DNA of 64,000 nucleotides from an uncultured virus (IMG/VR IMGVR_UViG_3300044545_000147) (Duplodnaviria > Heunggongvirae > Uroviricota > Caudoviricetes): the IMG/VR virus record IMGVR_UViG_3300044545_000147, one strand, 5' to 3'. The translations under genes and the position numbers were made by a program. Shown piece after piece: positions 1 through 61,043 of the stretch; the first letter of the stretch is position 1; every line of letters begins with the position of its first letter. Below the pieces are notes generated by a model. It saw nothing but the letters and a program-made list of their open reading frames with translations. It made no database searches and was not told the origin of the DNA.

Positions 1-1545
<1,545 letters not shown>

Positions 1546-4620: not shown

Positions 4621-4779
4621 ATGAATTCTAATAAATGGGATCAATCGAACTTTCAAGAAGCAGAAGATAATTTTCTGGATCCTGATTATAAATATCCATG
4701 GGAAAAACTTTCGGATAACAGATTTCCACAGGAAGAAGAGGAGGAAAACGACAATGGCGATACTAATTATGAGCGTTAA
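4621..4779 (+). CDS. Small acidic protein (52 aa)
   Basis: Hand-translated MNSNKWDQ...EEEEENDNGDTNYER; GAGG RBS; overlaps the YqaJ start. Confidence 0.45.
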   Translation: MNSNKWDQSNFQEAEDNFLDPDYKYPWEKLSDNRFPQEEEEENDNGDTNYER

Positions 4780-5707
4780 AAATTCCAAGGACCATAAAAA
4801 ATGGCTTGGAATGCGCGGAAAAGGCATTGGAGGATCCGATGCTGGATCTATTATGGGCCTTAATCCTTATAAAAGTCCATTCCAGCTTTGGATGGAAAAA
4901 ACCGGGCAGATAGAACCGGAAGATATTTCAGACAAAGAATGTGTGTACTGGGGGACCGTCCTTGAAGAAGCTGTAGCCCATCGTTTTACAGAGGTTACCG
5001 GTAAAAAAGTACAGCGCCGGGGAACGCTGCAGTCAGAAGAATATCCGTTCATGCTTGCGAATGTGGATCGAATGGTGGTTGGGGAAGATGCTGGATTGGA
5101 ATGTAAGACAACAGGATTTTCCTCCAAAAAAAACTGGGAAGATGACGAAATTCCCGATTCTTATTACTGCCAGTGCCTGCACTATATGGCGGTGACAGGC
5201 TGCCAGAAATGGTATATTGCAGTACTTGTAGGCGGTAATCATTTTATTTGGAAAGAAATCCAGCGCAATGAAGAAGATATCCAGGTATTAATCAAGGCAG
5301 AATCAGAATTTTGGGATAAGGTACAGAAGAAAGAAATGCCACCGGTGGATTGGACGATATCATGTGCAGAAGCACTGAAACACAGATTCAATCAGTCTAA
5401 TGGGGAAGAGATGGATCTTCCTGCGGAAGCGGCTGAAATTCTGCTGAAATTGGATGAATATCAGGATACTGAAAAAACACTGAAACAAAATATTCAACTT
5501 CAGAAAAATAGAATATGTGCCATTTTAGGAGATTTTGAAATTGGGCGCATAGGTGATAGGAAGGTTCTCTGGAAGTCCCAGAATGGTAGGGAATCCATTG
5601 ATCTAAAAAAGTTAAAGCAGGAAGCAGATGGTATGTTTTATCTGCGATTAAAAAATGATGGATTTATCAAAACAACAGCTCCTACACGTGTGCTTAGAAT
5701 CTATTGA
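4754..5707 (+). CDS. YqaJ-family viral recombinase exonuclease
   Basis: GIGGSDAG, WGTVLE, ANVDR..LECKT, YYCQCLHYM. Confidence 0.93.
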   Translation: MAILIMSVKNSKDHKKWLGMRGKGIGGSDAGSIMGLNPYKSPFQLWMEKTGQIEPEDISDKECVYWGTVLEEAVAHRFTEVTGKKVQRRGTLQSEEYPFMLANVDRMVVGEDAGLECKTTGFSSKKNWEDDEIPDSYYCQCLHYMAVTGCQKWYIAVLVGGNHFIWKEIQRNEEDIQVLIKAESEFWDKVQKKEMPPVDWTISCAEALKHRFNQSNGEEMDLPAEAAEILLKLDEYQDTEKTLKQNIQLQKNRICAILGDFEIGRIGDRKVLWKSQNGRESIDLKKLKQEADGMFYLRLKNDGFIKTTAPTRVLRIY

Positions 5708-5713
5708 AATATT

Positions 5714-5926
5714 ATGGATGCTCAGGAATTTCAAATTCTGCAGATTGGAGATCGTATATCAGTTAGAAGAGGAATGAATGTACCTCCTCTAACTGGCATA
5801 TGTGCAGATAAAATCGAAAGCAATATGGCCGAATCCATCCTTGTAAAAATCCATGTCAAAGGAAGTAAGCCAGTTTATCAATGGACAGCGGCCTGTTATG
5901 TAAAAAAGGAGGAAAAATCGTTATGA
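5714..5926 (+). CDS. Hypothetical protein (nearly identical to 58463-58675)
   Basis: Conserved in both prophages. Confidence 0.7.
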   Translation: MDAQEFQILQIGDRISVRRGMNVPPLTGICADKIESNMAESILVKIHVKGSKPVYQWTAACYVKKEEKSL

Positions 5927-6807
5927 AAACATCTGGTGGTTTGGTAAAGAAACAGGAAGAAATTAAGCAGGAACAGGAGAAGCCGGTGGGGCTCCGAGCT
6001 CTTATTGCAAAAATGGAACCGGAGATCAAGAAGGCGCTCCCTTCTGTGATCACTCCGGAACGGTTTACGCGGATGGTGTTTACAGCCCTTTCTACAAATC
6101 CGCAGCTTCTTAATTGTACGCCTGGATCTTTTCTTGGAGCCATGATGAATGCGGCTCAGTTGGGACTAGAGCCGAATACACCTCTGGGACAAGCGTACTT
6201 GATTCCCTATAAGAATCACGGAGTTATGGAATGCCAGTTCCAACTGGGCTATAAGGGATTAATTGATTTAGTATACCGCAGCGAGGAAGTTACAGATATT
6301 CAAGCTCATGAAGTTTATGAAAATGATGAGTTTGAGTATGAACTGGGCCTGGATCCGAAGTTGAAACATATCCCTGCATTGAAAGGCCGGGGAGATGTCA
6401 TCATGTATTACGCTGTATTCCATACAAAGAATGGAGGATACGGCTTTGAGGTTATGAGTAAGGATGATGTAAAAGCCTTTGCATCTAAAACAAGTCAGGC
6501 CTATGCATCAGCGTACAGTCCATGGAAGAAATATTTTGATGAAATGGCAAAAAAAACCGTACTGAAAAAAGCCTTGAAATATGCACCGATTAAAACTGAG
6601 TTTGTGCGTCAGATGCAGACGGATGAAAGCATAAAATCCTCAATTTCGGACAGTATGGCAGATATCCCTGATGAAAAAGTAGTAACAATAGATGCGGGAG
6701 AATCCAAAGACGCAGCCATACAACAAACACAATCAAAAGAAGAGATCCCATGGCCCGGAGATGAAGCACCTTCTGGTGTGGATCCGGAAACCGGAGAGAT
6801 AAAGTAA
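5923..6807 (+). CDS. recT: RecT-family single-strand annealing protein
   Basis: AQLGLEPNTPLGQAYLIPY, QLGYKGLIDL, EMAKKTVLK. Confidence 0.93.
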   Translation: MKTSGGLVKKQEEIKQEQEKPVGLRALIAKMEPEIKKALPSVITPERFTRMVFTALSTNPQLLNCTPGSFLGAMMNAAQLGLEPNTPLGQAYLIPYKNHGVMECQFQLGYKGLIDLVYRSEEVTDIQAHEVYENDEFEYELGLDPKLKHIPALKGRGDVIMYYAVFHTKNGGYGFEVMSKDDVKAFASKTSQAYASAYSPWKKYFDEMAKKTVLKKALKYAPIKTEFVRQMQTDESIKSSISDSMADIPDEKVVTIDAGESKDAAIQQTQSKEEIPWPGDEAPSGVDPETGEIK

Positions 6808-6831
6808 TTTTGGGATGATGGAGGGGCAATA

Positions 6832-7038
6832 ATGAATAGCAATGACTTTTCGCAGAGATATATGACGACACCGCAAGCTATCTATTATACGTCCATGAGT
6901 GAAAGAACGCTCCGTAAGGTTATGAAGGCTGCCAAAACGCAGCCTCATGGACCTAAGACGAAAACGTACTGGGATAAAGAAGTAATTGATGAGATTATGA
7001 AGAATTATCGTCTTAGGAATTGGAAGAAACAATCTTAG
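6832..7038 (+). CDS. Excisionase-like winged HTH protein
   Basis: RYMTTPQAIYYTSMSERTLRK pattern. Confidence 0.6.
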   Translation: MNSNDFSQRYMTTPQAIYYTSMSERTLRKVMKAAKTQPHGPKTKTYWDKEVIDEIMKNYRLRNWKKQS

Positions 7039-7058
7039 AAATACATCGGAAGAGGTAG

Positions 7059-8003
7059 ATGCCCATGGCAAGGCCAGGTAAAGAAGGCATTGATTACTTT
7101 CCATTCGATGTGGATTTCTTTGAGGATGACAAAATCCTATTTGTGACAGCCCGGTTTGGTGTAGCAGGCGAATTGGCCGTTGTGAAACTATTGTGCCGGA
7201 TCTATCGAAATGGGTACTACATTCACTGGGATGAAGATACGGCACTCTTGTTTTCGAAAGTTGCGGGACTGGAATCCCCTGGCTTAGCGAACAATGTAGT
7301 GAGCGAATTGGTCCGGCGCGGATTTTTTGATAAATCCCTTCTTGACTCGTTCTCCATATTAACATCACGGGGCATACAGGAACGATATTTCAAAGCGTGT
7401 GAGAGACGAAAGTCTGTGGAAGTTAATCAACAATATTTGCTTGTTGATTTCCGAAATTTCAAAAATCTCCACATGTCTACTTCAAGTACGCCCAACGGAG
7501 GTAAATGTATACATGATGTCAGCATTTCAAAGCAAAATGCCTACATTTCAGTTAAAAATGCAGACATTTATCCACAAAGGAAAGTAAAGGAAAGGAAAGT
7601 AAAGGAGAGTAAAGGAGAGGTCGTAAATACTGCCCCGCAAATTGGAGGAATTTCCCCCGATGATATGCAGAAATTGCAGGATAAATTTATTCAGCTTGTC
7701 GGAGGAATAGGTCCAGTCCAATATGCAAAAATAGTAGATCTTCAGAAACAGTATCCTTTTGAAAGAATATTGGAGGCAATTCAGATAGCGAAGGAACGCG
7801 ACAAACGAAAACTATCCTATGTAGAAGGAATTTTGAAAAGTTGGGAGAAGGATGGCTATGACGGAAATAGTTCAAAGAAGCAAGAGGGTGAAATATCTAA
7901 TGGACATAAGTACAAACTCAAAACTTGGAATGATTACAGAACGAATCAAGAAAATCATAGAGACACTTCCCCAGAATCGGGAGTTATCACCGGAGAAAAC
8001 TAA
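7059..8003 (+). CDS. Replication initiator (DUF4373/Lin1244-like N-terminus, DnaD-like C-terminus)
   Basis: MARPGKEGIDYFPFDV, LTSRGIQERY, SYVEGILKSW. Confidence 0.85.
   Translation: MPMARPGKEGIDYFPFDVDFFEDDKILFVTARFGVAGELAVVKLLCRIYRNGYYIHWDEDTALLFSKVAGLESPGLANNVVSELVRRGFFDKSLLDSFSILTSRGIQERYFKACERRKSVEVNQQYLLVDFRNFKNLHMSTSSTPNGGKCIHDVSISKQNAYISVKNADIYPQRKVKERKVKESKGEVVNTAPQIGGISPDDMQKLQDKFIQLVGGIGPVQYAKIVDLQKQYPFERILEAIQIAKERDKRKLSYVEGILKSWEKDGYDGNSSKKQEGEISNGHKYKLKTWNDYRTNQENHRDTSPESGVITGEN
7520..7620. repeat. Putative replication origin: 21-bp-period repeats, DnaA box, purine-rich repeats
   Basis: CATTT at 7523/7544/7565; TTATCCACA 7568-7576; AAGGAAAGTA repeats. Confidence 0.6.
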
Positions 8004-8694
8004 ACAAATCATTTCTGCGGATGGAATTGATTGTCCAATCTGTCATAACAGATGTTATGTATTTGTGAAGGAAGAAGGCCATACAGTAGCAAAACCATGT
8101 ATCTGTCAGAAAAAACGCCGGCAAGCATTTATCCTTCGGAGATCCGGAATATCGCAGCATGACTATGAAAGATATACCCTGAAGAGTTTTTATGTAGATA
8201 CGCCTGAAAGAACCAATATGAAGCAGGCGGCTGTATGCTTTATCAAAAAATATTATGAAGGGGCAGGAATTGGATATTTTGGGCATTCTGGGACGGGTAA
8301 AACGCATATATGTATTGCCATTTGCCAAGCCATACAGCGTGAACATTATTATTTCCAGTATCGGCGCGAAATCCAGCTAATTAAGAACTGCATGTATCGA
8401 AATGATGAAAAATATCGCAGCATGATGGATCAGTGGGAAAATTGTCCGATCTTGTACATGGATGACTTATTTAAAGGGGCCTGGATTAATGGGAAAATTC
8501 AGCAACAGGATGTCCAGGTCATTTTTGAAATAGTAAACAGTCGGTATATGAAGAAGCTTTCTACGATTGTTTCTTCAGAGCAGTCTTTATCTGAAATTCT
8601 GTCCGCAGATGAAGCAATTGGCAGTCGATTATATGAAATGCTTTCTCCTTATATCATAGAAATTTCTGGAGCAAATTATCGGATTGAAGAATAA
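7852..8694 (+). CDS. DnaC/IstB-like helicase loader ATPase
   Basis: CPIC..CIC Zn site, GHSGTGKT, YMDDLFK. Confidence 0.88.
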   Translation: MAMTEIVQRSKRVKYLMDISTNSKLGMITERIKKIIETLPQNRELSPEKTKQIISADGIDCPICHNRCYVFVKEEGHTVAKPCICQKKRRQAFILRRSGISQHDYERYTLKSFYVDTPERTNMKQAAVCFIKKYYEGAGIGYFGHSGTGKTHICIAICQAIQREHYYFQYRREIQLIKNCMYRNDEKYRSMMDQWENCPILYMDDLFKGAWINGKIQQQDVQVIFEIVNSRYMKKLSTIVSSEQSLSEILSADEAIGSRLYEMLSPYIIEISGANYRIEE

Positions 8695-8703
8695 GGAGAA
8701 AAC

Positions 8704-8925
8704 ATGGAAAGAGAAGAAAAGGAATATGGAAAAAGTGATGGAAAATGGAAGTCATCCTGGGAACTGTATCATGAATATTTAAACAGAACACAGGCAAATC
8801 AGAAAGGTAGTATATTGATTCGTCGTGATAGAAGGTATTTCAGAATAGGTATTATTTTAGGCCTTTTCACCTTATTCATGGTGGGAGTCGTTGTAATATT
8901 CACCTACTGCATGATTGGAGTGTGA
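8704..8925 (+). CDS. Hypothetical membrane protein
   Basis: C-terminal TM segment, AAGGAG RBS. Confidence 0.6.
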   Translation: MEREEKEYGKSDGKWKSSWELYHEYLNRTQANQKGSILIRRDRRYFRIGIILGLFTLFMVGVVVIFTYCMIGV

Positions 8926-8931
8926 CTTCTT

Positions 8932-9111
8932 ATGAAGTGCATCTTGTGTGGTAAGGAAATCTGCCGAGGACAAGAGTCAATCATTGATTTTCATGGAGAA
9001 ATGAGAGCAGCTCATCGAGATTGCGGGTTTCATATAGATTCTGAAGAAATACATTTAACCAAAGCGTTGAAGCATTATCGGGAAACGCATGTGGAGGGCC
9101 ATGATGAATAA
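8932..9111 (+). CDS. Small Zn-finger protein (MKCILCGKEI...HRDC)
   Basis: Hand-translated 59 aa, CxxC + HxxC. Confidence 0.55.
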   Translation: MKCILCGKEICRGQESIIDFHGEMRAAHRDCGFHIDSEEIHLTKALKHYRETHVEGHDE

Positions 9112-9256
9112 CAAAATCTTTGCGATCGTGATTATGTATTTCATTAGTCTGACAATTTGTACGGTAACAGCTTTTTATTACGGGCATTACATTATTGGAT
9201 TTATAGGAATGATCCTTATTGGCTGCATAAATATTGGCCAGGATCATCACAAATAA
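9101..9256 (+). CDS. Small membrane protein (51 aa)
   Basis: Hand-translated; GGAGGG RBS; two hydrophobic stretches. Confidence 0.5.
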   Translation: MMNNKIFAIVIMYFISLTICTVTAFYYGHYIIGFIGMILIGCINIGQDHHK

Positions 9257-9277
9257 TAAGAGGGAAGGGGAAATAAT

Positions 9278-9535
9278 ATGTTGGCAATATACCTTAAAGA
9301 TAAACATAAAATCATTTTGAATCCCATCTGTTTTGAGCAGGGTAAACGTGAATTTGATGCCTTCGATTTCACAAAAAAAACAATTGTGACAATAGATAAA
9401 AGTCATTTCATTTACATTAAAAGAGCGGACCTTGAAGTAGAAGAAGTTGATTGTGGCACATCAGAAAATGCGGTTCTCACTATCGCTAAAATATTGTTTG
9501 CCATTAATGCCGTGGAGAAGGTGATCCAGTTATGA
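9278..9535 (+). CDS. Hypothetical protein
   Basis: ORF with RBS. Confidence 0.6.
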   Translation: MLAIYLKDKHKIILNPICFEQGKREFDAFDFTKKTIVTIDKSHFIYIKRADLEVEEVDCGTSENAVLTIAKILFAINAVEKVIQL

Positions 9536-9912
9536 ATATGCGGCTGATATATGACGGAAAACTTCCCTCTCTGAATGAAATGATTAATTCAAGCAGAAGA
9601 AATCCTTATGCTGGAAATCGTCAGAAACGAGATACACAAAATCAGGTTATGTGGCAATTCAAAGTACAGATTATGAGGTTGTCTGATCAGTGCTTTCAAG
9701 GAAAGGCAAATGTTAGGATTACATATTTTGAGCCAAATATGAAACGGGATGAAGATGGAGTTCGATCCGCTGGAGACAAAATTATCCTTGATGCTCTGAA
9801 AGAGCTGCATGTGATTGTGGATGATCGGCCTAAATTTTGTCATTCTGTATCAGAAGTTAAATATGACAAAAAAAATCCGAGAATTGAAGTCGAAATAGAG
9901 GGGGCGTCCTAA
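9532..9912 (+). CDS. RusA-like Holliday junction resolvase
   Basis: LPSLNE, RDED..K.ILDAL..IVDD, NPRIEVEI. Confidence 0.8.
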   Translation: MNMRLIYDGKLPSLNEMINSSRRNPYAGNRQKRDTQNQVMWQFKVQIMRLSDQCFQGKANVRITYFEPNMKRDEDGVRSAGDKIILDALKELHVIVDDRPKFCHSVSEVKYDKKNPRIEVEIEGAS

Positions 9913-15175: not shown

Positions 15176-15481
15176 ATGGTAACGACGAGACAGAAAATAA
15201 AACGGTTGACGATGGCAATCAATTTAAAATACGGATTGATTTATCTGATCAGTAAAAAGCAAGTATATAGCGAAATGAAGGAAAAAGTCTATAACGTTAC
15301 TACTTTATATGAAATGATGTCTTATGTCCGATATAAGCGATTATTTCCTATAAAAGCGAAAAAGAGAAAAGATAATAGTAAAAGAATTCGCGTCCAGATT
15401 ATGGAAACATTTAATGAAGCAGATATTTTGATTGCCTTGGCCAAGATCTACAAGGGAGGTGAAAAAGATCATGCTGGATGA
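15176..15481 (+). CDS. Hypothetical basic protein preceding terS
   Basis: ORF overlapping the terS start. Confidence 0.6.
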   Translation: MVTTRQKIKRLTMAINLKYGLIYLISKKQVYSEMKEKVYNVTTLYEMMSYVRYKRLFPIKAKKRKDNSKRIRVQIMETFNEADILIALAKIYKGGEKDHAG

Positions 15482-15911
15482 ATATGGGCTGACGCCAAAA
15501 CAGAGAGCATTTTGTGACTATTACTTGGAAAGCGGCAATTTATCCGACGCGGCGCGTAAAGCTGGATATAGCAAAAAAACAGCGCATGCAATAGGAACAG
15601 AGAACCTTCGAAAGCCTGTAATAGCCGCATATATTAAGCATTACGCAGATGCAAAAGATGACAATAGAATAGCGAAAGCAGATGAAGTGCTTGAGTTTCT
15701 GACTAAAGCTATGCGCGGAGAAATCAAAGACCAGTTTGATCTGGACCCGACATTGCAAGATCGTCTTAGAGCTGGTGAAATGTTGGGGAAACGATATGGC
15801 ATGTTCAGTGACCGCTTAAAGCTGGGCGGAGATCCCGATAATCCTACGCCGATCAAAGAAGAAATTGTTCAGGTATACCTTCCGGATAATAAGCGGGATA
15901 AAAAGAAGTAA
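15471..15911 (+). CDS. terS: Terminase small subunit
   Basis: LTPKQRAFCDYYL..N..AARKAGYS...ENLRKP. Confidence 0.92.
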   Translation: MLDEYGLTPKQRAFCDYYLESGNLSDAARKAGYSKKTAHAIGTENLRKPVIAAYIKHYADAKDDNRIAKADEVLEFLTKAMRGEIKDQFDLDPTLQDRLRAGEMLGKRYGMFSDRLKLGGDPDNPTPIKEEIVQVYLPDNKRDKKK

Positions 15912-15942
15912 TGTGTAATAGGATATGGGGGGTGATCAATAG

Positions 15943-17422
15943 ATGGCTGTATTAAAGCCCCAAAAGGGACCGCAGGAAATGTTTTTATCATCGCCTGCCG
16001 ATATAGCCATCTATTAGATACGGTGGTTCTGCAGGAGGCGGTAAAACCTATGCATTGCTGCTGGAATGCCTTCGGCACATAGATAATAAAGACTTTGGTG
16101 CTGTCATATTCAGACGAGAAGCGGCACAGATAACAAACGAAGGCGGATTATGGGACAATGCACTTGATATGTATGTGCCGATCGGTGGGACACCGAAAGG
16201 CACACCTAAACTTTGTTTCACATTTCCTTCTGGAGCAAAGATAAGCTTTGCTCACCTGCATAGAGAAGTGGATGTAAATTCCTATCAAGGTGCTCAGATT
16301 TGTCTGATCGCTTTTGATGAACTTTGTCATTTTGAAGAGAAACAATTTTTCTATATGCTATCACGTAACCGTTCCATATGCGGAGTAAAACCATATGTAA
16401 GAGCAACATGCAATCCGGATTCTGACAGCTGGGTTGCTTCTTTTATTTCATGGTGGATTGATCAGGATACTGGGTATGCCATAAAAGAACGGTCTGGGCA
16501 GCTACGCTACTTTGTACGCTTGGGCGATCAGATCAAATGGGGTGACAGCCGGGAAGAACTGATGACGGATCCCGATGTCAGCTCAGCCATGAATGAATTG
16601 GCTGATAAAACGAAAAATAACGATCCTGGTGCTTTTATTAAGAGCGTCACGTTTATTGCGTCATCAATTTATGATAACAAAGAACTTTTATCTGCCAATC
16701 CCCAATATCTAGGGAACCTGAAAGCACTGTCGACGGTAGATCGGGAAAGGTTATTGAATGGGAACTGGAAAATAAGACCTGCGGCCGGGCTGTATTTTAA
16801 ACGCGAACAGGTCAAAATTGTAAAATCTGTACCAGATAAAATTGTGTCTATTACCAGAGCCTGGGACTTAGCTGCGACTGAAATATCAGAAGCCAATAAG
16901 GATCCTGATCGGACTGCCAGTGCGTTAATTGCTAGAATGGCTAATGGACAATATATAGTACTGGATGTCATTCAGCAGGCTATATCAGCTTCTGCGGTGC
17001 GTCATGTCGTAGTTAATACCGCTAGAACAGATTATGCACAGTATCAATGCAATCATATCCTGATACCGCAGGATCCGGGGCAGGCGGGGAAGGAGCAGGC
17101 TGGAAGTTATACCCGCATGCTGGCAGCTTACAAAATTGAATGCCATCCAGTATCAGGAGATAAAATTGTTCGTGCGGAACCGTTTGCTGCTCAATGGCAA
17201 TCAGGAAATGTTCTGCTGTTGGAAGGGTTATGGAATAATAAGTACCTTGATGAACTAGAAGGATTTCCAGAGGCACTGCATGATGATCAGGTAGATGCTT
17301 CATCGGATGCTTTTAATGATGTGGCTTATGAAAGGCCGCCTATTATAGCAGAAACAAGTACTACAAATTACAATGAATTGCTGAATCCTGATTTCGAAGA
17401 TAGATGGGATGGCGGCTATTAA
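15943..17422 (+). pseudogene. terL: Terminase large subunit interrupted by 7 nt at 16012-16018 (pseudogene or recoded gene)
   Basis: Frame 1 MAVLKPQKGPQEMFLSSPADIAIY*, then frame 2 YGGSAGGGKTYALLLEC...FDEL...RATCNP...RAWDLA...HDDQVDA. Confidence 0.88.
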
Positions 17423-18176
17423 AGGAAGTGATCTTTTGTACGATGTCATTATACCAACCTACAATACAGCAAAAATGACAATGGAGTGTATTCAATCTGT
17501 TTTAAAACATAATCGTAAGGTTCATGTCATTGTAGTAGATAATGGTGATGATCAGACGAAGGAATTGATTCAGTCAAAATTCCTCAATGTAAGATACATT
17601 AAAAATAAAAACAATGTAGGATATGCCAAAGCCTGTAATCAAGGAATTTATGCTGGCCATGCGGAATATATTATATTCCTAAACAGTGATACAAAAATGA
17701 TTCATGATGGTGTACTTGATGTCATGAAAAGCGTTTTTCAGAAGAATCCGCAATGTGCTGTAGTCGGTCCCAAACTCATTAATGACAGCGGCCGGATTGT
17801 GGGATGTGGTGTGGTGGGAAGTAATGCCAGTCCTAAAATCAGAGGCTGGTTGGAAATGGATGGAAAAGATAAATACTGTACTGAGATTCAATGCATTAGT
17901 GTCTGTGGCGCTTGTATGATGATTAAACGGTCAAATATACCAATATTAGGAATGATGGATGAACACTATCCTTTCTACTTCGAAGAAACAGACTATTGCT
18001 ATAATGCCAGAGATAAGGGTTATGATGTGATCTATACGCCATTGGCGAAGGTGATCCATTATGGAGGGGCCAGCTCAAGAGACCGCATTCAGACAAATCA
18101 GTGGTTTAAAGTTGGTCAGCAATATTTTGATAAAAAGTGGTCTCATATGATGGAGGATAATACGATTTATGGTTAA
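17409..18176 (+). CDS. GT2-family glycosyltransferase
   Basis: VIIPTYN, VVDNG, FLNSD, YFEETD. Confidence 0.92.
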   Translation: MAAIKGSDLLYDVIIPTYNTAKMTMECIQSVLKHNRKVHVIVVDNGDDQTKELIQSKFLNVRYIKNKNNVGYAKACNQGIYAGHAEYIIFLNSDTKMIHDGVLDVMKSVFQKNPQCAVVGPKLINDSGRIVGCGVVGSNASPKIRGWLEMDGKDKYCTEIQCISVCGACMMIKRSNIPILGMMDEHYPFYFEETDYCYNARDKGYDVIYTPLAKVIHYGGASSRDRIQTNQWFKVGQQYFDKKWSHMMEDNTIYG

Positions 18177-18864
18177 ACTGACATGCATGATGCTTGTTAA
18201 AAATGAAGCCAAGAGATATTTGAAACAGGTGCTGACCCATATATCAAATTATGCAGACGAGATTGTTATTTTAGATGATAACAGCACTGATAAAACTTAC
18301 GAAGTCTGCAGGTCATTTGAAAAAGTGGTAAGCCTTCAAAAGGTGAAGGGCACATCATTTGGTGAAAATGAAGCAGCGCCCCGGTATCAACTCTTTCTGC
18401 AGACGATGAAAACGAATCCGGAATGGATTATTGCGTTGGATGCTGATGAACAGATGGAAAATGCATTTGAACCGGCAATTCATAATATTTTAGAGAGAGC
18501 TGGAGATAAAAAATGGTTTAGTATTGAATTTTATCATTTCTGGAATAGTATGCAATATTATCGCACTGATAAACTTTGGAAACCTGCGCAGGGACCGCGA
18601 ATATTTAAAGTTGAAGATGATATTCGATATGAATGGCTTGATAGAAAACTTCATTGTGGGAGCATTCCGCGGAATCTAACGAAATATCCGGGCACGTATA
18701 GTGGATACCGTGTTAAACACTTTGGATATGCAGATGGTCCTGAACGCACAAAGAAAAAATATGAATGGTATATCAAAAGGGATCCAAATAGTGAAATGTG
18801 TCCCCGAAGCCATTATGATTCTATGTTAGATGAGCATCCTGTTTTGAAGGAGTGGGTTGAATGA
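18169..18864 (+). CDS. GT2-family glycosyltransferase
   Basis: MLVKNE, DDNSTD, LDADE, HFGYA. Confidence 0.9.
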   Translation: MVKLTCMMLVKNEAKRYLKQVLTHISNYADEIVILDDNSTDKTYEVCRSFEKVVSLQKVKGTSFGENEAAPRYQLFLQTMKTNPEWIIALDADEQMENAFEPAIHNILERAGDKKWFSIEFYHFWNSMQYYRTDKLWKPAQGPRIFKVEDDIRYEWLDRKLHCGSIPRNLTKYPGTYSGYRVKHFGYADGPERTKKKYEWYIKRDPNSEMCPRSHYDSMLDEHPVLKEWVE

Positions 18865-19583
18865 TCGCTATAGGCTGCCCGATTCGGAATCGGGAAGGGA
18901 TTCTCCATGAGTATTTATCGGCATTGGAAAAGATTGACGGAAAGAAACAGTTCCTTTTCTTGGCCAATGACTGTATTGACAGGACTGTTGAAATTCTGCA
19001 ATCTTTTCAGCGGAGATATCCGAATACAGTTCTTAAAGTGATTAAGTCAAATGATGATGATATTCCGACCACAGAACGATCTAGGACAGGGTATGCCAGA
19101 GATAATTATAAGCATCTGGCAGATCTCCGAAATCAGTTTATATCACTATTCCTGAAAGAAACAGAATGTCAGTATCTATTAAGTGTGGATTCGGATATCA
19201 TAGTGCCTCAGAACATTGTTTCAAAGCTTAAACATATTGTGGATTCAGATAAATTCCGAGGAAGGTACCGTATAGCGGCAGCAGCCATATCCAATATTAA
19301 AGGAAAGGATCTTGATGGACATATACCTGGAAATTTTATGGTTCGGATACCTAGGACCAATCGATTCCGTCATCCATCAAGTTATCCTCTGGAAGGGACT
19401 TTTTTATGTGATATGGCTGGAGCAGTCAGTTTAATACCTAGGGAAGTTTTAGAAAAAATGGAAGCGAAAAAACATGTTTATGAAGCGCATTCACAAGGTG
19501 AGGACTGTGGATTTGCCCTCAATGTGCCGGATGAGACATATTTTATTACTCATATGGGATGCCGCTGCCAGCATAGGATGTGA
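18861..19583 (+). CDS. GT-A fold glycosyltransferase
   Basis: GCPIRNR, NDCID.T, LADLRN, VDSDI, GED. Confidence 0.85.
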   Translation: MIAIGCPIRNREGILHEYLSALEKIDGKKQFLFLANDCIDRTVEILQSFQRRYPNTVLKVIKSNDDDIPTTERSRTGYARDNYKHLADLRNQFISLFLKETECQYLLSVDSDIIVPQNIVSKLKHIVDSDKFRGRYRIAAAAISNIKGKDLDGHIPGNFMVRIPRTNRFRHPSSYPLEGTFLCDMAGAVSLIPREVLEKMEAKKHVYEAHSQGEDCGFALNVPDETYFITHMGCRCQHRM

Positions 19584-22625: not shown

Positions 22626-25600
22626 ATGGGAGATCTAAATACAAAGCAGCGCAAATCTTTGGATGATAAAGATTTTGCGGTTCCGAGAAAGCGGAAATTG
22701 CCGATTAATGATGCTACGCATATAAAACTTGCGTGGGATATGGTGGACCGCACAAAAGGATTGACGATGGAGGAACGGACTTCAGCGCGTAAAAAAATAT
22801 TGGCTGCGGCTAAAGACAAAGGAATAGATACTTCTAGTTGGAATAAAAAATCCATGGAAGATACCGTTATCAGCGAAATTAAAATACTGAATGACGATGT
22901 CAATATTGCAGAACAACCGCTGAAAGTAAGGTTTAAAGGTAGCACAGCTAATGTGGTGAATGAAAACAAGAGATTATATCCGGCAGAGGTTTTGAAAGAT
23001 GCCGTGGAGCGCTTTAAGGCGAAGCTTCCTGTTATTGGGGAAAGTCCTCATCCGCCTTCCTTGAAAAGCAAAGCAGGTAATATATTTTTTGATACCAAGG
23101 TTGAAAATTCGGTAATGAAGATTACGGACGTCTTTATGGATAATATGGACGTCTTTTTTGATGCTGAAATACTCAATACGGCTAAGGGTAAAGATGTACA
23201 GGCCCTCATTAAACAAAATGTACCTGTAGGAGATTCCATCCGAATGTTGGGAACCAGTGTCAAACGAATTATTGATGGGATTGAGGCGGATGTAGCCACT
23301 TACCTTGATATCCAGGCATGGGATCTTGTCATGAATCCTGCGACTGATGGCTGTAAATCACTAAAAGTTTTAACGGACTCCCAGATATCAGATGCTATTG
23401 AAGATGGGATCGAAATCGGAAATCCGGGATGTCCTCTTTGTGGAGCTGATCTGACAGCGCAGGATCCTGATAATGATGGGGATGTAGATTTCTATGTCTG
23501 TGAATCATGTGGGCAGGCGTTTGTTGAAAATCATTCAGTGTCTTCTCAGGTATCAGCAAATACTAATTTGTGTATGGTGACACTGAATGATTTTGATCGT
23601 TATCCACAGGCTCAGTCATGGTTGGCAAATAACCAAGCCAAGAAACAGCAGATTGTAAAAGACAATATTGTGAGTCCGTTAAGCGACGGGAAAGAAAAAG
23701 GAGATGGAGAAATCTTGAATAAGGAAGAGTTAATGAAAATTTTGAAAGATGATCCCGATGTAAAAGGGATCCTTGAAGGTACGGCTAAAGGAATTGCACA
23801 GCCCGCTCTTGATTCTGTGGAAAAACAGAAAGCAGCTGAAATGAAGGAACAGGCTAAGAGTGATGCCAAAGCATTTCTTGGTGAAAAAATGGCCGCTTTG
23901 GACGGAAAAATCTCCAAAGAGAATATCAAAATGATGACAGACGCCATTGGAGAACCGGAAAATAAAGAAATTGCTCAGACATTGTTTGATTCCATGATGA
24001 AGGTATTTAGTAGTGAAGGAGCTAAAACAGTGCTTAACTCTGTAGGATTTAAAGATGGCAAAAGCCCGGAAGGAAAAACTCATTTCGATGTAACGGAGAA
24101 TGCTAAACCGTGGAGACCGGTAGTAGATGAGATCATCAAAGCAACAGACCATTGGCGCGAACAGTTTGGTGATGTACATGATGAAAAACTTCGTGCCTAT
24201 AACCAAAAGAACTTTGCAAAAGTATATGAAGCCATTGAAAAAAATGTTGGCGAAAAAGCACTGTATGACAGTGTGCGTGAAGGACGTTTGGTTGTGTCCA
24301 ATGACCGTGAAGGACGGATGCTCCCGATAAATGACAGTATGCAGGGAGCAGAGTTCCTTGATGCTGTGTCTGTAACTACATCTCAGGTGTTGAACCAGCC
24401 GACTATTTTGACTGCCGTGATTGTCCAGGCCTTTCAGGATGTAGAATCAGCACAGTTTATGTTTACAGATGTGTTCAAAGGCTCTGAATGGAGATTGCCG
24501 ATTGAAACATTTACGTCAGCCGCTCAGTATAATCCGTTGACTGGTCTCCCGGATTTAGCAGTATCTGAGGGAGTTGGTATTACACCGTCCACTTTGAATT
24601 TGGGATGGCAGTCCTTCTCTCCGACATGGAGACGGAACGCGGTCAGCATTACTGAAGACGTCATCCGGCAGTTGGAAACCGGGCCGCTGAATTATGCAAC
24701 GATCGCCCGAGCTACTTATCATATTGCTTTCGACAAACGCCGTAAAGTAGATGATGCAGCTTATCTTGAAATGTTAATGGCTTCCGATGAATATGCGCCG
24801 TTTGCTGTTTCCTCTGAAACTCCTGCTTCAGCTTCTGCCGTTACAGCAACAGGGGTTCCCTCCGGATCTAATGCTTCTTATCTCTATGCTTTGAAACCAA
24901 CTACAGTAAAATATGAAGCTCCGACAATCTCTTCTTCTACAGGAAATGTAGTAGGTGGAAATCCTGTCGTTCGTCCGCGGATTACCAACCAGATTCAGCC
25001 GTCAGGGCAGGTTAAAGCTGTTACGGTCAATCCGGTATCCATTACCGTGGGTGGAACTGCCTTGGTGCTTGGTGCGTGGGATGGTACGAATATCGTCAGC
25101 TTTAGTGGGACAACAGCTCAGGCGGCTGTTGATTTTGAACATGGAGTCGTTTACTTTAATTCAGCATCTGGAGTGAATCCTTCTGCCTCTACACCGATTC
25201 TTCCGTGTATCTCTTACAGTGCAGTGACCAACTTTGACCGTTGGCATTCTACGCTCGGAAGCGGGTATAACGATATTGCGGCATATTATGACACATTCCT
25301 GCAGCAGTTGACGGCGACTTCTGCCTTAATGGGAAGCTCTCCCCGCTACAAAAAACCGAACCTGGCTATTTTCTCTCTGAACTCTGCTGCCTATGTGGAA
25401 AATGCCAGAATCTTTTACAAATGGGCATCTCCGACAGGTACTTCTCTGATTGATACCGGCAATACTTTTGGCATGAGATCTGGAATGAATCTGTCTAAGA
25501 TCAATGCACCATGGGTAGCGGGAGATGGGCGTGTTCTGCTGACGCAGAAGGGGTCTACACGGTATGGCATTGAGACCCCGTATTCTTTGGAAGGCCCGTA

Positions 25601-25745
25601 TCCTGTTTATGACAATAATCAGCAGATCATTGATGCCAAACTGTGGTATGGCAAGGAAAACTCCGTACTCTGCACTCCGCAGGTAAGAGATACGAGCTTT
25701 AATATCATCAATCCTGTAAGCCGGACTATTATTATTGAGGCATAA
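22626..25745 (+). CDS. Head polyprotein: small N-terminal domain + prohead protease + Zn ribbon + scaffold + major capsid
   Basis: NENKRLYP..GESPHP protease-like motif; CPLC..CESC; helical linker; position between gpF-like and adaptor genes. Confidence 0.78.
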   Translation: MGDLNTKQRKSLDDKDFAVPRKRKLPINDATHIKLAWDMVDRTKGLTMEERTSARKKILAAAKDKGIDTSSWNKKSMEDTVISEIKILNDDVNIAEQPLKVRFKGSTANVVNENKRLYPAEVLKDAVERFKAKLPVIGESPHPPSLKSKAGNIFFDTKVENSVMKITDVFMDNMDVFFDAEILNTAKGKDVQALIKQNVPVGDSIRMLGTSVKRIIDGIEADVATYLDIQAWDLVMNPATDGCKSLKVLTDSQISDAIEDGIEIGNPGCPLCGADLTAQDPDNDGDVDFYVCESCGQAFVENHSVSSQVSANTNLCMVTLNDFDRYPQAQSWLANNQAKKQQIVKDNIVSPLSDGKEKGDGEILNKEELMKILKDDPDVKGILEGTAKGIAQPALDSVEKQKAAEMKEQAKSDAKAFLGEKMAALDGKISKENIKMMTDAIGEPENKEIAQTLFDSMMKVFSSEGAKTVLNSVGFKDGKSPEGKTHFDVTENAKPWRPVVDEIIKATDHWREQFGDVHDEKLRAYNQKNFAKVYEAIEKNVGEKALYDSVREGRLVVSNDREGRMLPINDSMQGAEFLDAVSVTTSQVLNQPTILTAVIVQAFQDVESAQFMFTDVFKGSEWRLPIETFTSAAQYNPLTGLPDLAVSEGVGITPSTLNLGWQSFSPTWRRNAVSITEDVIRQLETGPLNYATIARATYHIAFDKRRKVDDAAYLEMLMASDEYAPFAVSSETPASASAVTATGVPSGSNASYLYALKPTTVKYEAPTISSSTGNVVGGNPVVRPRITNQIQPSGQVKAVTVNPVSITVGGTALVLGAWDGTNIVSFSGTTAQAAVDFEHGVVYFNSASGVNPSASTPILPCISYSAVTNFDRWHSTLGSGYNDIAAYYDTFLQQLTATSALMGSSPRYKKPNLAIFSLNSAAYVENARIFYKWASPTGTSLIDTGNTFGMRSGMNLSKINAPWVAGDGRVLLTQKGSTRYGIETPYSLEGPYPVYDNNQQIIDAKLWYGKENSVLCTPQVRDTSFNIINPVSRTIIIEA

Positions 25746-53158: not shown

Positions 53159-54751
53159 TTATACATTGATTCTATTATTTTCTGTTTTTCGTGGATAATA
53201 GAGGGAATATTTTCTTTTAGATTTCATGCGTACAGTAACTGGTTGTGTATTTATTCTTATATCTGCCTGGGACACCAATAAAGCCACGACTATCTCATTA
53301 TTGTAGACGGTAACACGGTCAATGACGAGGTGAAAAAGGACCTTGATTCGCTCAGGGTTCTTTTTTTGTTGCAGAATCCGCTGCATAAGATCGATGATCT
53401 GATCCACCTTCTCTTCATCCAATGTACCGACCTGGATATGATTTTCTGCATCTTCAATCAGACGGCGCACAGACAGAACTTCCTGCTTTGCTTTTGACAG
53501 CCGGACCTGTTCAAAATCATCGGAATCTCCTGATTCAATCAGATCATAAATGCGATCAAGCTTCTTCATGCCCTCGGTCTCCCGGCGCTTCAGACGCTTC
53601 AGCTCTTCTGTGTAATCTATAGATCCGCGGTTCTTCAGATTTTCTGTAATCAGATCTTTTATATGCTGTCTGGCATTAGGCGCCAGAAACATACTTTTGA
53701 TCTTTTCTAAAATGTGATTCTCCAGCTGATCACGGTCAATCATGTGACTGGGGCACTTTTCTTTTCCAATCAGCCTGGCACAGCGGCAGCGGTAATAATA
53801 ATTTTTATGGCCTTTTTGATTGGTAGTGGAATGCCCAATCATGGGAGCACCGCATATACCGCAGTAAATTAATCCGGATAAAGCATAAATATTTTTTTTC
53901 TGACCGGCGCCCGGACGGGTTTTTCGTTCATTCATCTTATTCTGCACCTCCTGAAACTTATCCTTATCAATAATAGGCGGGATGACATCTTCAAAAATCT
54001 GTGCACTGGGGTTCAGCTTATGATTATTTCGCCGTCCCTTACGGATTAATGCTTTCCCGATAATCAGCGTTCCCTCGTATTTCCGATTCCTAAGAATCTC
54101 ATATAGCGAAGAAACACAAAAAGATTTCCCGCGGCGGTTGCGGTATCCGGCATCATATAACCGCTGGAGAATTTCATGATATCCCATTCCGGATAAATAC
54201 ATGTTAAAGATAGAGCGTATCACAGGCGCTTCTTCTTCATTGATGATGATATGCTTTTCCCGATCAGTAGTATATCCGTAAGGAGGACGACCTCCAGTGG
54301 ATTTTCCCTCATAAGCGTTTTCCCGGAGCCCCTTCTTGATTTCGGCGGCCAGGTTGCGGGAATAATAAGCAGACATTCCGACCATGACAGCCTCCATCAT
54401 CTGGCCTTCAGGAGTTGTACTGTCTATGTCCTGCCGGCTGTACTCATACCCGATGCCTGTGTCCTGAAGGAGTTTTTTCGTGGTATAGTAGTCATATTCA
54501 TTCCGGGCATTACGATCGATCTTATGAAAAATAATTACGTCAAATAAGCCTTTTTTCGCATCCGCCAGCATTTGCAGATATTGATCCCGGCCGGCCGTCG
54601 TTGTTCCCGACTTCGCTTCATCGGCATATTTTCTGACGATGATATAACCTTTTTTCTTGCAATAAGCGGTACTGTCTCTGAACTGAGCAATAATACTTTC
54701 TTCCCGTTGATTATCAGAAGAGAAGCGGGCATATAAAGCGGCGCGTGTCAT
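53159..54751 (-). CDS. int: Large serine recombinase (integrase 2); last 35 aa encoded by prophage 1 DNA
   Basis: Close homolog of int1; reads through the att core. Confidence 0.95.
   Translation of the reverse strand: MTRAALYARFSSDNQREESIIAQFRDSTAYCKKKGYIIVRKYADEAKSGTTTAGRDQYLQMLADAKKGLFDVIIFHKIDRNARNEYDYYTTKKLLQDTGIGYEYSRQDIDSTTPEGQMMEAVMVGMSAYYSRNLAAEIKKGLRENAYEGKSTGGRPPYGYTTDREKHIIINEEEAPVIRSIFNMYLSGMGYHEILQRLYDAGYRNRRGKSFCVSSLYEILRNRKYEGTLIIGKALIRKGRRNNHKLNPSAQIFEDVIPPIIDKDKFQEVQNKMNERKTRPGAGQKKNIYALSGLIYCGICGAPMIGHSTTNQKGHKNYYYRCRCARLIGKEKCPSHMIDRDQLENHILEKIKSMFLAPNARQHIKDLITENLKNRGSIDYTEELKRLKRRETEGMKKLDRIYDLIESGDSDDFEQVRLSKAKQEVLSVRRLIEDAENHIQVGTLDEEKVDQIIDLMQRILQQKKNPERIKVLFHLVIDRVTVYNNEIVVALLVSQADIRINTQPVTVRMKSKRKYSLYYPRKTENNRINV
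53266..53277 (+). repeat. att core at prophage 1/2 junction
   Basis: CCTGGGACACCA identical to 63-74. Confidence 0.93.
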
Positions 54752-57505: not shown

Positions 57506-58456
57506 ATGGCAAAATTAATTCTTAGCGTCAAAGAAGCAAAAGATCATGATAAGTGGCTGGAAGTCAGAAATATGGGAATCGGTGGTTCTGATGCTGGTGT
57601 CATTATGGGACTGAATTCTTATAAGAGTCCTTTCCAGCTTTGGATGGAAAAAACTAGTCAGATCCAGCCGGAAGATCTCTCGGACAATGAATATGTGTAT
57701 TGGGGAACAGTGCTGGAAGATGCAGTGGCAAGGCGTTTTTCTGAATTGACGGGGAAAAATGTGGCACATCGAGGAACGCTGCAGTCAGAAGAATATCCGT
57801 TCATGCTGGCGAATGTGGATCGAATGGTAGTGGGGGAAGATGCCGGCCTGGAATGCAAAACGGCCAATGCATTTTCTTCTAAAAAATGGGACGGTGATGA
57901 AATACCCGATTCTTATTACTGCCAGTGTCTGCACTATATGGCGGTGACAGGCTGCCAGAAATGGTACATTGCAGTACTTGTAGGCGGTAATCATTTTATT
58001 TGGAAAGAAATCAAGCGCAATGAAGAAGATATCCAGGCATTGATCAAAGCGGAATCAGAATTTTGGGATAAAGTGCAGAAAAAAGAAATGCCACCGGTGG
58101 ATTGGACAGTATCCTGCGCTGATGCGCTTAAAGAAAAATTTCACGATAACGGTGAGGAGATGGAACTTCCTGATGAAGCCGGGGAAATTTTGAAGGAATT
58201 GGATAAATGCCAAGATGCAGAGAAAGTTTTAAAGCAGGAAATACAGCTGCAGAAAAACAAAATATGCGCCATTTTAGGAGATTTCCAAGTGGGAAAGATC
58301 GGTGACAGAAAGGTCCTCTGGAAGTCCCAGAATGGCCGAGAATCCATTGATCTAAAAAAGTTAAAGCGGGCAGCGGATGGCATGTTTTATCTGCGGTTGA
58401 AAAATGATGGATTTATCAAAACAACAGCTCCTACACGTGTGCTTAGAATCTATTGA
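57506..58456 (+). CDS. YqaJ-family exonuclease
   Basis: Highly similar to 4754-5707. Confidence 0.93.
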   Translation: MAKLILSVKEAKDHDKWLEVRNMGIGGSDAGVIMGLNSYKSPFQLWMEKTSQIQPEDLSDNEYVYWGTVLEDAVARRFSELTGKNVAHRGTLQSEEYPFMLANVDRMVVGEDAGLECKTANAFSSKKWDGDEIPDSYYCQCLHYMAVTGCQKWYIAVLVGGNHFIWKEIKRNEEDIQALIKAESEFWDKVQKKEMPPVDWTVSCADALKEKFHDNGEEMELPDEAGEILKELDKCQDAEKVLKQEIQLQKNKICAILGDFQVGKIGDRKVLWKSQNGRESIDLKKLKRAADGMFYLRLKNDGFIKTTAPTRVLRIY

Positions 58457-58462
58457 AATATT

Positions 58463-58675
58463 ATGGATGCTCAGGAATTTCAAATTCTGCAGATTGGAGA
58501 TTATATATCAGTCAGAAGAGGAATGAATGTGCCTCCTCTCACTGGCATATGTGCGGACAAAATCGAAAGCAATATGGCTGAATCTATTCTGGTAAAAATT
58601 CATGTCAAGGGAAGTAAGCCAGTTTATCAATGGGCAGCAGCCTGTTACGTAAAAAAGGAGGAAAAATCGTTATGA
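58463..58675 (+). CDS. Hypothetical protein (nearly identical to 5714-5926)
   Basis: Two amino-acid differences seen by eye. Confidence 0.7.
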   Translation: MDAQEFQILQIGDYISVRRGMNVPPLTGICADKIESNMAESILVKIHVKGSKPVYQWAAACYVKKEEKSL

Positions 58676-59565
58676 AAACATCTGGTGGGTTGGCAAAAAA
58701 GCAGCAGGAAATTAAGCAGGAACAGGAGAAGCCATTGGGACTGCGTGCTCTGATTGCAAAAATGGAACCGGAGATTAGGAAGGCGCTGCCTTCCGTGATT
58801 ACTCCAGAGCGGTTTACGCGGATGGTATTTACAGCCCTTTCTACAAATCCGCAGCTTCTTAATTGTACTCCTGGATCATTCCTGGGGTCTATGATGCAGG
58901 CGGCACAGCTGGGGTTGGAGCCGAATACACCTCTGGGACAAGCGTACTTGATTCCCTATAAAAATCATGGAAATATGGAATGCCAGTTCCAGCTTGGATA
59001 TAAAGGGCTTATCGATCTGGTATACCGTAGTGAGGAGGTTACCGATATTCAGGCTCATGAAGTTTATGAAAATGATGAATTTGAATATGAATTAGGGCTA
59101 AATCCGAAATTGAAGCATGTACCTGCATTGAAAGACCGTGGAGATGTCATCATGTATTACGCCGTATTCCATACAAAGAATGGAGGATATGGCTTTGAGG
59201 TTATGAGCAAAGAGGATGTAAAAATTTTTGCATCCAAAACAAGTCAGGCTTATGCATCGTCTTACAGTCCATGGAAGAAATATTTTGATGAGATGGCAAA
59301 GAAAACCGTACTGAAAAAAGCCTTGAAATATGCACCAATTAAAACCGATTTTGTGAGACAGATGGAGACTGATGGAAGTGTAAAATCATCTATCTCAGAA
59401 AATATGACAGATCTTCCCGACGAAAAAGTTGTTACTATTGATGCTGATACACAGATGGATTTAGATGAATCTTCTCATCAGGGAAAGAGCGAGGGGGAAG
59501 AAATTCCATGGCCCGGAGATGAAGCACCCGCTGGTGTGGATCCGGAAACCGGAGAAGTAAAATGA
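58672..59565 (+). CDS. recT: RecT-family annealase
   Basis: Highly similar to 5923-6807. Confidence 0.93.
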   Translation: MKTSGGLAKKQQEIKQEQEKPLGLRALIAKMEPEIRKALPSVITPERFTRMVFTALSTNPQLLNCTPGSFLGSMMQAAQLGLEPNTPLGQAYLIPYKNHGNMECQFQLGYKGLIDLVYRSEEVTDIQAHEVYENDEFEYELGLNPKLKHVPALKDRGDVIMYYAVFHTKNGGYGFEVMSKEDVKIFASKTSQAYASSYSPWKKYFDEMAKKTVLKKALKYAPIKTDFVRQMETDGSVKSSISENMTDLPDEKVVTIDADTQMDLDESSHQGKSEGEEIPWPGDEAPAGVDPETGEVK

Positions 59566-59593
59566 TTACCATTCTATTCCAGACAAGGAGGTA

Positions 59594-60430: not shown

Positions 60431-61043
60431 TAAGCGGAAAGATCAAGACTTATATCATAAAATGCTCAGTGCTCATGGTATTCATAGACGGTTCTGGAAC
60501 TGCACATTTGAGTCTATGGAACAAAATGGGATACCGGAACAGTGCCAAAGAAATTTCATTCATGCTAGGGATTATGTAAATCGGTTTGGGGAATATAAAT
60601 CTAAAGGCATCGGAATTCTGATGATGGGACCGGTAGGAGTGATGAAGACATCTCTTTCTATAGCCATTGCCCAAGCAGTCCTAAAACAAAAACACAGTGT
60701 CCAATTTATCCCAATGGCAGAGTTGCTGGATCAGATTCTCACAATGACACGGAAAAAAGATCCGTCAGAGTTTCTACAATTTGAAGAGAGACTTCGGGCG
60801 ACGAGTCTACTTATTATTGATGATCTGGGTGCTGAGTATAAACAAAGTTGGATTACAAATAAGGTAGATGCTATTATTACAGCCCGGTATAATCGGATGC
60901 TGCCGATTATCATAACCACCAATTTAAAGCCAAATGAATTACTGGGGCGTTATCAGGAGCGAGTTTATGACCGTTTAAAAGGTGCATCTCTTGTTATGAA
61001 ATATGAAGGGAGCAGCCTTCGCACATCGCCAATATCTAAATGA
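60324..61043 (+). CDS. DnaC/IstB-like ATPase
   Basis: GPVGVMKT, LLIIDDLGAE, IITTNL, R.YDRL. Confidence 0.85.
   Translation: MGMTEIKNPKQSVLALINQMQKHAEQTGQISQNLSDKRKDQDLYHKMLSAHGIHRRFWNCTFESMEQNGIPEQCQRNFIHARDYVNRFGEYKSKGIGILMMGPVGVMKTSLSIAIAQAVLKQKHSVQFIPMAELLDQILTMTRKKDPSEFLQFEERLRATSLLIIDDLGAEYKQSWITNKVDAIITARYNRMLPIIITTNLKPNELLGRYQERVYDRLKGASLVMKYEGSSLRTSPISK

Follow-up and report, generated by a model that had tools for sequence, protein, structure and literature searches.

The gene for the large terminase subunit, terL, was analyzed in a stretch of 64,000 nucleotides (nt) from an uncultured virus of the Caudoviricetes (IMG/VR virus record IMGVR_UViG_3300044545_000147), referred to as the window in the following. 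Just before its Walker A motif the gene is split by 7 nt, in which a stop codon, one spacer base and a second tyrosine codon follow directly on a tyrosine codon. The elements of the locus are listed below.

15927..15935, plus strand: Shine-Dalgarno-like GGGGGGTGA, read from the sequence, 7 nt before the terL ATG
15943..16014, plus strand: terL segment 1, codons 1-24, MAVLKPQKGPQEMFLSSPADIAIY, aligning to the N-termini of intact homologues
16012-16014, plus strand: proposed take-off codon TAT, the last codon of segment 1
16015..16021, plus strand: coding gap of 7 nt, TAG A TAC, with the UAG stop at 16015-16017, the spacer A at 16018 and the proposed landing codon TAC at 16019-16021
16022..17425, plus strand: terL segment 2, 466 codons from the resume codon GGT and the stop at 17423-17425
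16022-16048, plus strand: Walker A motif GGSAGGGKT, within segment 2
16005..16028, plus strand: predicted RNA hairpin with the stem 16005-16011 / 16022-16028, whose 10-nt loop is exactly UAU UAG A UAC

Across the junction the DNA reads GCC ATC TAT / TAG A TAC / GGT GGT TCT GCA GGA GGC GGT AAA ACC. Including its stop, the first segment forms a listed open reading frame (ORF) of 24 amino acids (aa) at 15943..16017, and from 16007 (PSIRYGGSAGGGKT...) the +1 frame runs uninterrupted as far as the stop at 17423-25. With the 7 nt skipped, 24 + 466 codons yield a TerL of 490 aa with the junction IAIY-GG, and no other lesion was found in these 490 codons. A first-pass annotation, made from the sequence alone, had described the split, a good ribosome-binding site ahead of the ATG at 15943 and an intact 490-aa protein on removal of the gap. 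These descriptions are correct, the family junction being restored by the removal. Pfam analysis of 16007-17422 revealed Terminase_6N (PF03237, 2e-27) and Terminase_6C (PF17289, 3.2e-12), and phrog_979 matched at 3e-149. With an ATPase domain containing Walker A and an RNaseH-like nuclease domain, the protein belongs to the large-terminase family Terminase_6N/6C (T4-like fold). The anatomy of the site is established: UAU and UAC form a pair of possible take-off and landing codons, and UAG lies directly 3' of the first. Both tyrosine codons are decoded by one tRNA-Tyr (anticodon GUA).

In total, 113 of 123 homologous proteins are intact or intact-like and without the gap, with a full N-terminus and the junction [AS]D[IV]x[IV][YF]-GG(A/S)AGGGK(T/S). 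Intact homologues read ...ADIAIYGG(A/S)AGGGKT with a single Tyr. Since the junction spacing is invariant among them, the window contains exactly 7 extra nt. The leader carries the most conserved N-terminal motif of the family, PQ.GPQE.FL. Canonical junction spacing was found in 69 of 82 loci by regular expression and in a further 3 by eye. A scan of the viral collection for the conserved flanks at a spacing of 0-30 matched at least 115 stretches; the 80 matches listed all showed spacing 0.

Contigs of the runs X4 (15708-16392) and X5 (15965-16474), from two other studies (Logan), span the site with 0 differences and 0 gaps. Because both bridge it identically, an assembly error, which the first-pass annotation had considered, is excluded and the presence of the site in independent assemblies is established. 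In run X6 a 228-nt contig stops short of spanning the site, at 16019, where the landing codon begins; run X7 has no coverage there. The contig end in X6 might simply be due to low depth or might mark a variant allele in this sample. In the 90%-identity cluster of the downstream ORF, each of the 4 members shows this same truncation, to a gene call of 455 aa; they derive from Logan, JGI and ENA, with 1+4+3+1 contigs. Scans of viral and metagenome contigs for the exact site gave no match, near-identical records probably not being among those searched. The fixed Tyr-stop-N-Tyr pattern and the GAC-Asp variant gave 0 matches, and a locus search with the window TerL returned one distant partial locus only.

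The first-pass annotation had proposed that related terL genes be aligned for a conserved gap. This search revealed 18 further gaps in diverged genes, so that the type of insertion is not unique to the window. All scans asked for conserved flanks and non-canonical spacing; a stop codon was not required. With 1-30 extra bases demanded after the Tyr codon, one viral contig (L118), two metagenome contigs (L119, L120) and one contig of a Peptococcaceae metagenome-assembled genome (L121) were obtained. In four of these four the insert lies at the same codon boundary and is led by a stop. Leader and downstream ORFs are otherwise open, the latter with 455 and 453 aa where complete, while two run off short contigs. 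The last scan, of viral contigs, allowed extra bases anywhere from the Tyr codon to the second Ala codon; it matched 16 loci, of which 2 belong to contigs already known. The inserts are given below between the codons that flank them.

L118 to L121, after Tyr: TAT/TAGAAC/GGA; TAC/TGAAC/GGG; TAT/TGAC/GGT; TAT/TAGCTAA/GGT (L133 is the contig of L118)
L127 and L128, two gaps: TAT/TGAC/GGT and GGT/TAG GGC/AAA
L132: TAT/TAGAC/GGC
L158, L159 and L166: GGC/TA GGA/GCA
L129, after the conserved ...EEFL: CTT/TAG CTC/TCC
L055, from the viral scan with at least 115 stretches, same place as L129: CTT/TAG CTT/GCC
L214, last scan: GCC/TAG T GCT/GCG, of the same X-stop-N-X' form as the window and its nearest row in the tree
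Last scan, 4 contigs: GGC/TA GGC/TCC
Last scan: GGT/TA GGT/GCC
Last scan, 2 contigs: GGC/TAG CCA CGC/GGG
Last scan, 2 contigs: TCC/TGA AT TCT/GCA
Last scan: TCT/TAG TCT/GCG
Last scan: GCT/TGA GCG/GGG
Last scan, 2 contigs: GGT/TGA GC/GCT

The two gaps of L127 and L128 (1470-1500, plus strand) are separated by only 21 nt and are identical in two metagenomes; the first is UGA-led, has 4 nt and follows Tyr, and the second, GGU UAG GGC, is in frame and lies in the P-loop.

Including the window, 19 distinct gaps were counted after four spurious rows had been dropped (three elsewhere in the window, one in L216), L158 had been merged with L166 and L209 had been added. The resume codon was set solely by the canonical length of the protein. 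A stop in the upstream frame leads 19 of the 19 gaps (13 UAG, 6 UGA, 0 UAA), and stop-free insertions at these junctions were not found (0 of 20 gap-scan matches). Gap lengths are 4 nt (2 gaps), 5 nt (6), 6 nt (6), 7 nt (3), 8 nt (1) and 9 nt (1). In 9 of the 19 the triplet before the resume codon is equal or synonymous to the take-off codon, as in CUU-UAG-CUU, UCU-UAG-UCU, GGC-UA-GGC and GCC-UAG-U-GCU. The other 10 match in two of three positions; the chance expectation per gap is about 1/32 for the full and about 1/4 for the two-position match. All 19 gaps possess cognate or near-cognate landing triplets and intact downstream ORFs. The sites fall after FL, after Tyr and inside YGG(S/A)AGGGK; they occupy about eight codon positions, none beyond the first ~35 codons, so that the interruptions are restricted to about 7% of the gene. 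At one and the same Tyr codon, related genes (75-83% aa identity) contain gaps of 4, 5, 6 or 7 nt. With these lengths different changes of frame are needed, yet one hop rule covers them all.

The family-wide pattern of gaps is also established in loci gathered by homology. With the L121 protein 80 terL loci were collected as an unbiased set, and 8 of the 78 that include the N-terminal region carry gaps. Beyond Walker A all 82 loci are free of interruptions, the ORFs from GK to the stop comprising 421-460 aa save two of ~630 aa and two running off contigs. The ~630-aa ORFs, which extend from Walker A to the stop in two of the 82 rows, may be fusions with a downstream gene. Among the 120 best protein clusters around L121, 53 begin at or after Walker A and 67 are intact. 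Since so many protein calls start there, the gap trait is common in the L121 clade, and since gene callers truncate these genes, calls of phage completeness and of defective prophages are biased. Thirteen clusters begin with MAAGAAGGGK, others with MVARRKTW or MEQRAEVDGKTW (among P0125-P0128, P0157-P0166 and others). As gene calls, such truncated starts imply putative further gap types around Walker A. In the genomes of the Peptococcaceae family (38) and of its class (88) one further terL only was found, which is intact.

From this comparison we infer that the terL of the window is probably functional and would be translated by means of a short programmed bypass, in which the ribosome performs a stop-hop from UAU to UAC. 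Such a bypass over UAG-A had been suggested in the first-pass annotation and gains support from diverged terL genes, whose 19 stop-led gaps of 4-9 nt, located at this codon or beside it, agree with hopping and with none of the rival mechanisms. In the proposed sequence of events, the ribosome would translate 24 codons from the ATG at 15943, leaving peptidyl-tRNA-Tyr on UAU (16012-14) while the A site holds UAG (16015-17), a poorly used stop at which termination would be slow. The anticodon would release, the mRNA would slide by 7 nt and the same tRNA-Tyr would re-pair with UAC (16019-21). Decoding would restart at GGU 16022 to give a 490-aa TerL (~55 kDa) with ...ADIAIY-GGSAGGGKT, containing the junction peptide ...SSPADIAIYGGSAGGGK (also written ...FLSSPADIAIYGGSAGGGK). 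One rule would then hold for all 19 gaps: a weak stop in the A site, a slide of 4-9 nt and re-pairing on a cognate or near-cognate triplet, restoring the canonical protein. If the hop occurs, its efficiency could also serve regulation: since the gap lies at codon 24 and a failed hop would waste a peptide of only 24 residues, it could act as a cheap attenuator of TerL synthesis. TAG is the rare stop of the window (of 77 ORF ends TAG 4, TGA 41, TAA 31).

Lineages sharing a gap were compared pairwise. L158 and L166 differ by 100.5 synonymous and 13.5 nonsynonymous changes, with a synonymous divergence (dS) of 0.49 and a ratio of nonsynonymous to synonymous divergence (dN/dS) of 0.027; the intact control pair L130 and L131 gave a dN/dS of 0.039. 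For the other pairs the synonymous and nonsynonymous changes were 19 and 1 (L158/L159), 13 and 1 (L204/L212), 8 and 0 (L212/L219), 4 and 1 (L213/L217) as well as 4.5 and 4.5 (L207/L211), the last with a pN/pS of 0.30. Judged by these substitution counts, gap-sharing lineages are under purifying selection.

A small hairpin at the site had also been drawn in the first-pass annotation. It is recovered only in part in the minimum-free-energy fold, where 16005-16011 are paired with 16022-16028 and UAU UAG A UAC forms a 10-nt loop. The fold has a z-score of -1.78, with 14 of 200 shuffles folding equally well, and a second computation gave -2.3. As the complementarity is inherent in the V/A-I ... G-G codons, a role of the predicted hairpin is treated as unproven.

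Several points weigh against a functional hop in the window. Its support is comparative, not experimental, and synthetic stop-hops in E. coli are inefficient (~1%). The z-scores of the hairpin (-1.8 and -2.3) are not significant alone, and similar stems are predicted in L120, L127 and L121, not in L118, L132 and the trio L158/L159/L166. The loci obtained with gap patterns were ascertained for flanks that still match. Around the 5-nt gap shared by L158 and L166, 124 nt (1436-1559) are identical, whereas the rest of terL shows 164 differences in patchy distribution, up to 19 per 60 nt. This identity could stem either from synonymous constraint near the gap or from recent exchange of the segment by gene conversion; the latter would weaken the argument from selection. 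The window lineage comprises three protein haplotypes of at least 99.3% identity, up to 3 residues apart. Because it is thus nearly clonal, selection after the insertion is not measurable in it, and the copy could be a recently grounded prophage. No intact close relative of the window TerL was found in a collection of 5.8 billion proteins, the next matches being 69-71% identical and intact. The gene also sits in a tandem prophage array, a setting where decay is common.

These points bear on the strongest alternative, an inactivating 7-nt insertion that would have grounded prophage 1, the phage carrying this terL, for want of a functional TerL, its likeness to hop sites being irrelevant to this copy. 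Only near-identical copies of the allele exist, prophage 1 is integrated in tandem with a second prophage, and the insert generates a small palindrome, ATCT-ATT-AGAT, as a template-switch error might yield. Furthermore, all 4 amino-acid differences among the haplotypes are nonsynonymous, by definition, as only proteins were compared. A random 7-nt insert would, however, give an adjacent stop together with a cognate landing codon only about once in 680 by our own arithmetic, and eighteen further gaps follow the same rules. Purifying selection acts on gap-sharing lineages. The leader and the 466 codons are intact, and every structural ORF scanned still matches its family. This is consistent with the first-pass statement that no other structural gene is broken, as far as a PHROGs scan of 76 ORFs can tell, which is not exhaustive for this purpose. 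A grounding mutation, also raised in that annotation, may apply to this nearly clonal lineage but leaves the family pattern unexplained; on balance we consider it unlikely. Excision of an IS630/mariner-like element with a TA-TTAGA-TA footprint was rejected, the TA duplication pattern being confined to the window and absent from the other 18 gaps. Transcriptional slippage was discarded likewise, as no homopolymer is present.

A similarly low probability is assigned to an extension of the stop-hop, in which the stop-led micro-gaps, rather than being tolerated damage, would be a selected, possibly transferable trait of this terL family that protects the DNA of Walker A while hopping restores the protein. 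The gaps would break the most conserved phage DNA and shield it from homing endonucleases of competitors or from CRISPR, and TerL output would be tied to release-factor activity. On a FastTree phylogeny of 96 TerL rows (25 with gaps; two duplicate contigs omitted) the presence of a gap needs at least 10 changes. In an earlier tree of 82 rows, 10 of 10 gap rows fell into one half of 28 rows and 0 among the other 54. Under this extension, the 124-nt identity and the at least 10 gains or losses would reflect gap-spreading gene conversion, as in the T4 gene 60-mobA cassette. A Pfam analysis of 6 loci, with 21 flanking ORFs, revealed neither HNH nor GIY-YIG domains; an endonuclease gene elsewhere in those genomes would escape this search.

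Programmed +1 frameshifting at UAU-UAG-A, in which AGA would be read out of frame to give a product with two extra residues (IAIY-RY-GG), is a considerably weaker candidate. In its favour, the +1 frame can be read from 16007 onwards, stops in the A site classically stimulate +1 shifts, and the 4- and 7-nt gaps are both net +1. In prfB (RF2), too, an A-site stop serves as stall signal. There, the slippery CUU-U and a Shine-Dalgarno sequence 3 nt upstream are required and the product contains every codon, whereas the window has no slippery codon: tRNA-Tyr cannot re-pair from UAU to AUU, and the sequence 5' of the gap site, GCCGATATAGCCATC, is without a Shine-Dalgarno-like element. The junction length is moreover invariant in 113 of 123 homologues and in all gapless loci, while frameshifting would add two residues (RY or IR), of which Arg would presumably occupy a buried site, position -2 of the strand that leads into the P-loop. 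The closely related genes L118, L120, L132 and L127 need frame changes of +1, +2 or 0, and the 5-, 6-, 8- and 9-nt gaps of related genes are not resolved by this mechanism. In L121 it is unworkable because a UAA lies in the new frame, right before the resume codon.

Still less probable is termination followed by re-initiation, which would produce a 24-aa leader and a separate TerL beginning near the gap, either as two functional pieces or with a dispensable N-terminus. The gap lies just 72 nt from the start, a GUG precedes Walker A in loci with the gap after FL such as L129, and 70S ribosomes are reported to be able to slide and re-initiate after short ORFs (PMC11194080). In the window, TTG 16055 is the sole canonical start of the downstream frame; it lies after Walker A, so that the product would lack the P-loop. 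The downstream frame of L121 is closed up to the resume codon, and the conserved PQ.GPQE.FL of the leader argues for its being part of the enzyme. Finally, a sequencing error or an alternative genetic code is practically negligible even for a metagenome-derived record, given the identical sequence in other studies, the recurrence of other gap alleles in independent metagenomes, the +1 frame error that remains with TAG as sense codon and runs into TAA, the normal genes ending in TGA (41) and TAA (31), the UGA- and UAG-led gaps within one gene (L127) and the absence of a suppressor tRNA from the window.

Translational bypassing is among the rarest decoding events, known or proposed for T4 gene 60 and its homologues, yeast mitochondrial byps and three Streptomyces terL genes. 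With T4 gene 60 the window shares matched take-off and landing codons and a stop directly after the take-off codon; the take-off hairpin of T4 has a merely predicted counterpart, and one polypeptide would likewise arise from two ORFs. In T4 the gap has 50 nt, a nascent-peptide signal is required, bypassing is ~50% efficient, and the gap belongs to a mobile cassette with the mobA endonuclease; the gap of the window has 7 nt, and neither a homologous cassette nor an endonuclease gene next to terL was found.

The byps of Magnusiomyces capitatus mitochondria are reportedly GC-rich inserts of 27-55 nt. They are named in the 2016 recoding review (PMC5009743) and likewise represent many short untranslated inserts within one genetic system, where hopping makes them tolerable. 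Those inserts are mobile and subject to a mitochondrial code, whereas the terL gaps are 4-9 nt long, stop-led and confined to one gene region.

The original work on synthetic stop-hops is reportedly that of Weiss et al. 1987. Its architecture is shared exactly by L055 (CUU UAG CUU), L129 (CUU UAG CUC), L208 (UCU UAG UCU) and L127 (GGU UAG GGC), and the window (UAU UAG A UAC) differs from it by one spacer base. The synthetic examples were engineered and of low efficiency, whereas the terL gaps are natural and recurrent, occur in an essential phage gene and in many cases change the frame. In the 2016 recoding review (Atkins et al., PMC5009743), E. coli stop-hops are described with matched codons around the stop, 9 nt giving one amino acid, and a natural in-frame stop-hop is stated as not known.

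In terL itself, candidate bypassing has been put forward for Streptomyces phage phiHau3 (two 10-nt gaps) and the prophages StrepC.1 and S. catenulae (7-nt gap), and mass spectrometry in E. coli detected a junction peptide (PMC10732093). The likeness concerns the same gene, frame-breaking inserts of 7-10 nt at junctions invariant in relatives, a slow A-site codon, predicted local RNA pairing that brings the landing site near, and a conserved junction length that argues against frameshifting. The trigger there is the rare sense codon UUA (bldA tRNA, linked to the host life cycle), here a UAG or UGA stop. The Streptomyces cases concern another terminase family and position with 4 sites in 3 genes, whereas the present 19 gaps belong to Terminase_6N genes of many lineages and are spread over about eight codon positions in the region of Walker A. 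The hosts are Streptomyces there and of anaerobic Firmicutes type here. The UAG-led gap of the window is not a UUA-led gap in a bldA-dependent host, and its GC content of ~40% is not Streptomyces-like. In the literature searched, to which the supplements of PMC10732093 did not belong, stop-led gaps at the Walker A of terL were not found described for phages outside Streptomyces. The 19 natural stop-led gaps provide a comparative series on what makes ribosomes hop over a few bases, how a landing site is chosen and why an essential motor gene tolerates or exploits such gaps.

The virus record has a length of 63,452 bases and holds two prophages in tandem. At 63269-64000 of the window, the final 732 bases fall beyond the stated range of the record; no N occurs among them. 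Further features are given below.

1-1545, minus strand: serine integrase, start of prophage 1
15432..15911, plus strand: terS, small terminase subunit, directly upstream of terL (Pfam Terminase_2, 2.9e-33; phrog_51, 3.5e-39)
53159-54751, minus strand: second integrase, start of prophage 2, within which the record ends

In prophage 1 the serine integrase is followed by RecE/RecT and a replication module, terS, terL and three glycosyltransferases, then by portal, MuF, a protease/capsid fusion, sheath, tape measure, baseplate, fibres and endolysin, and it closes with a methyltransferase/helicase block. The serine integrases of the two prophages (1-1545 and 53159-54751) are paralogous, and modules with RecE/RecT, a replication initiator, a DnaC-like protein and RusA occur in both (4754-9912 and 57506-61433). 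The three glycosyltransferase-like genes between terL and portal (17409-19583) belong to family GT2, the third being a weak Anp1-like match; this is an unusual site for moron genes. An ORF of 1039 aa at 22626-25745 contains DUF6582 and a prohead serine protease domain (Peptidase_S77), and its long C-terminal part matches phrog_22848; it may represent a protease/scaffold/capsid fusion.

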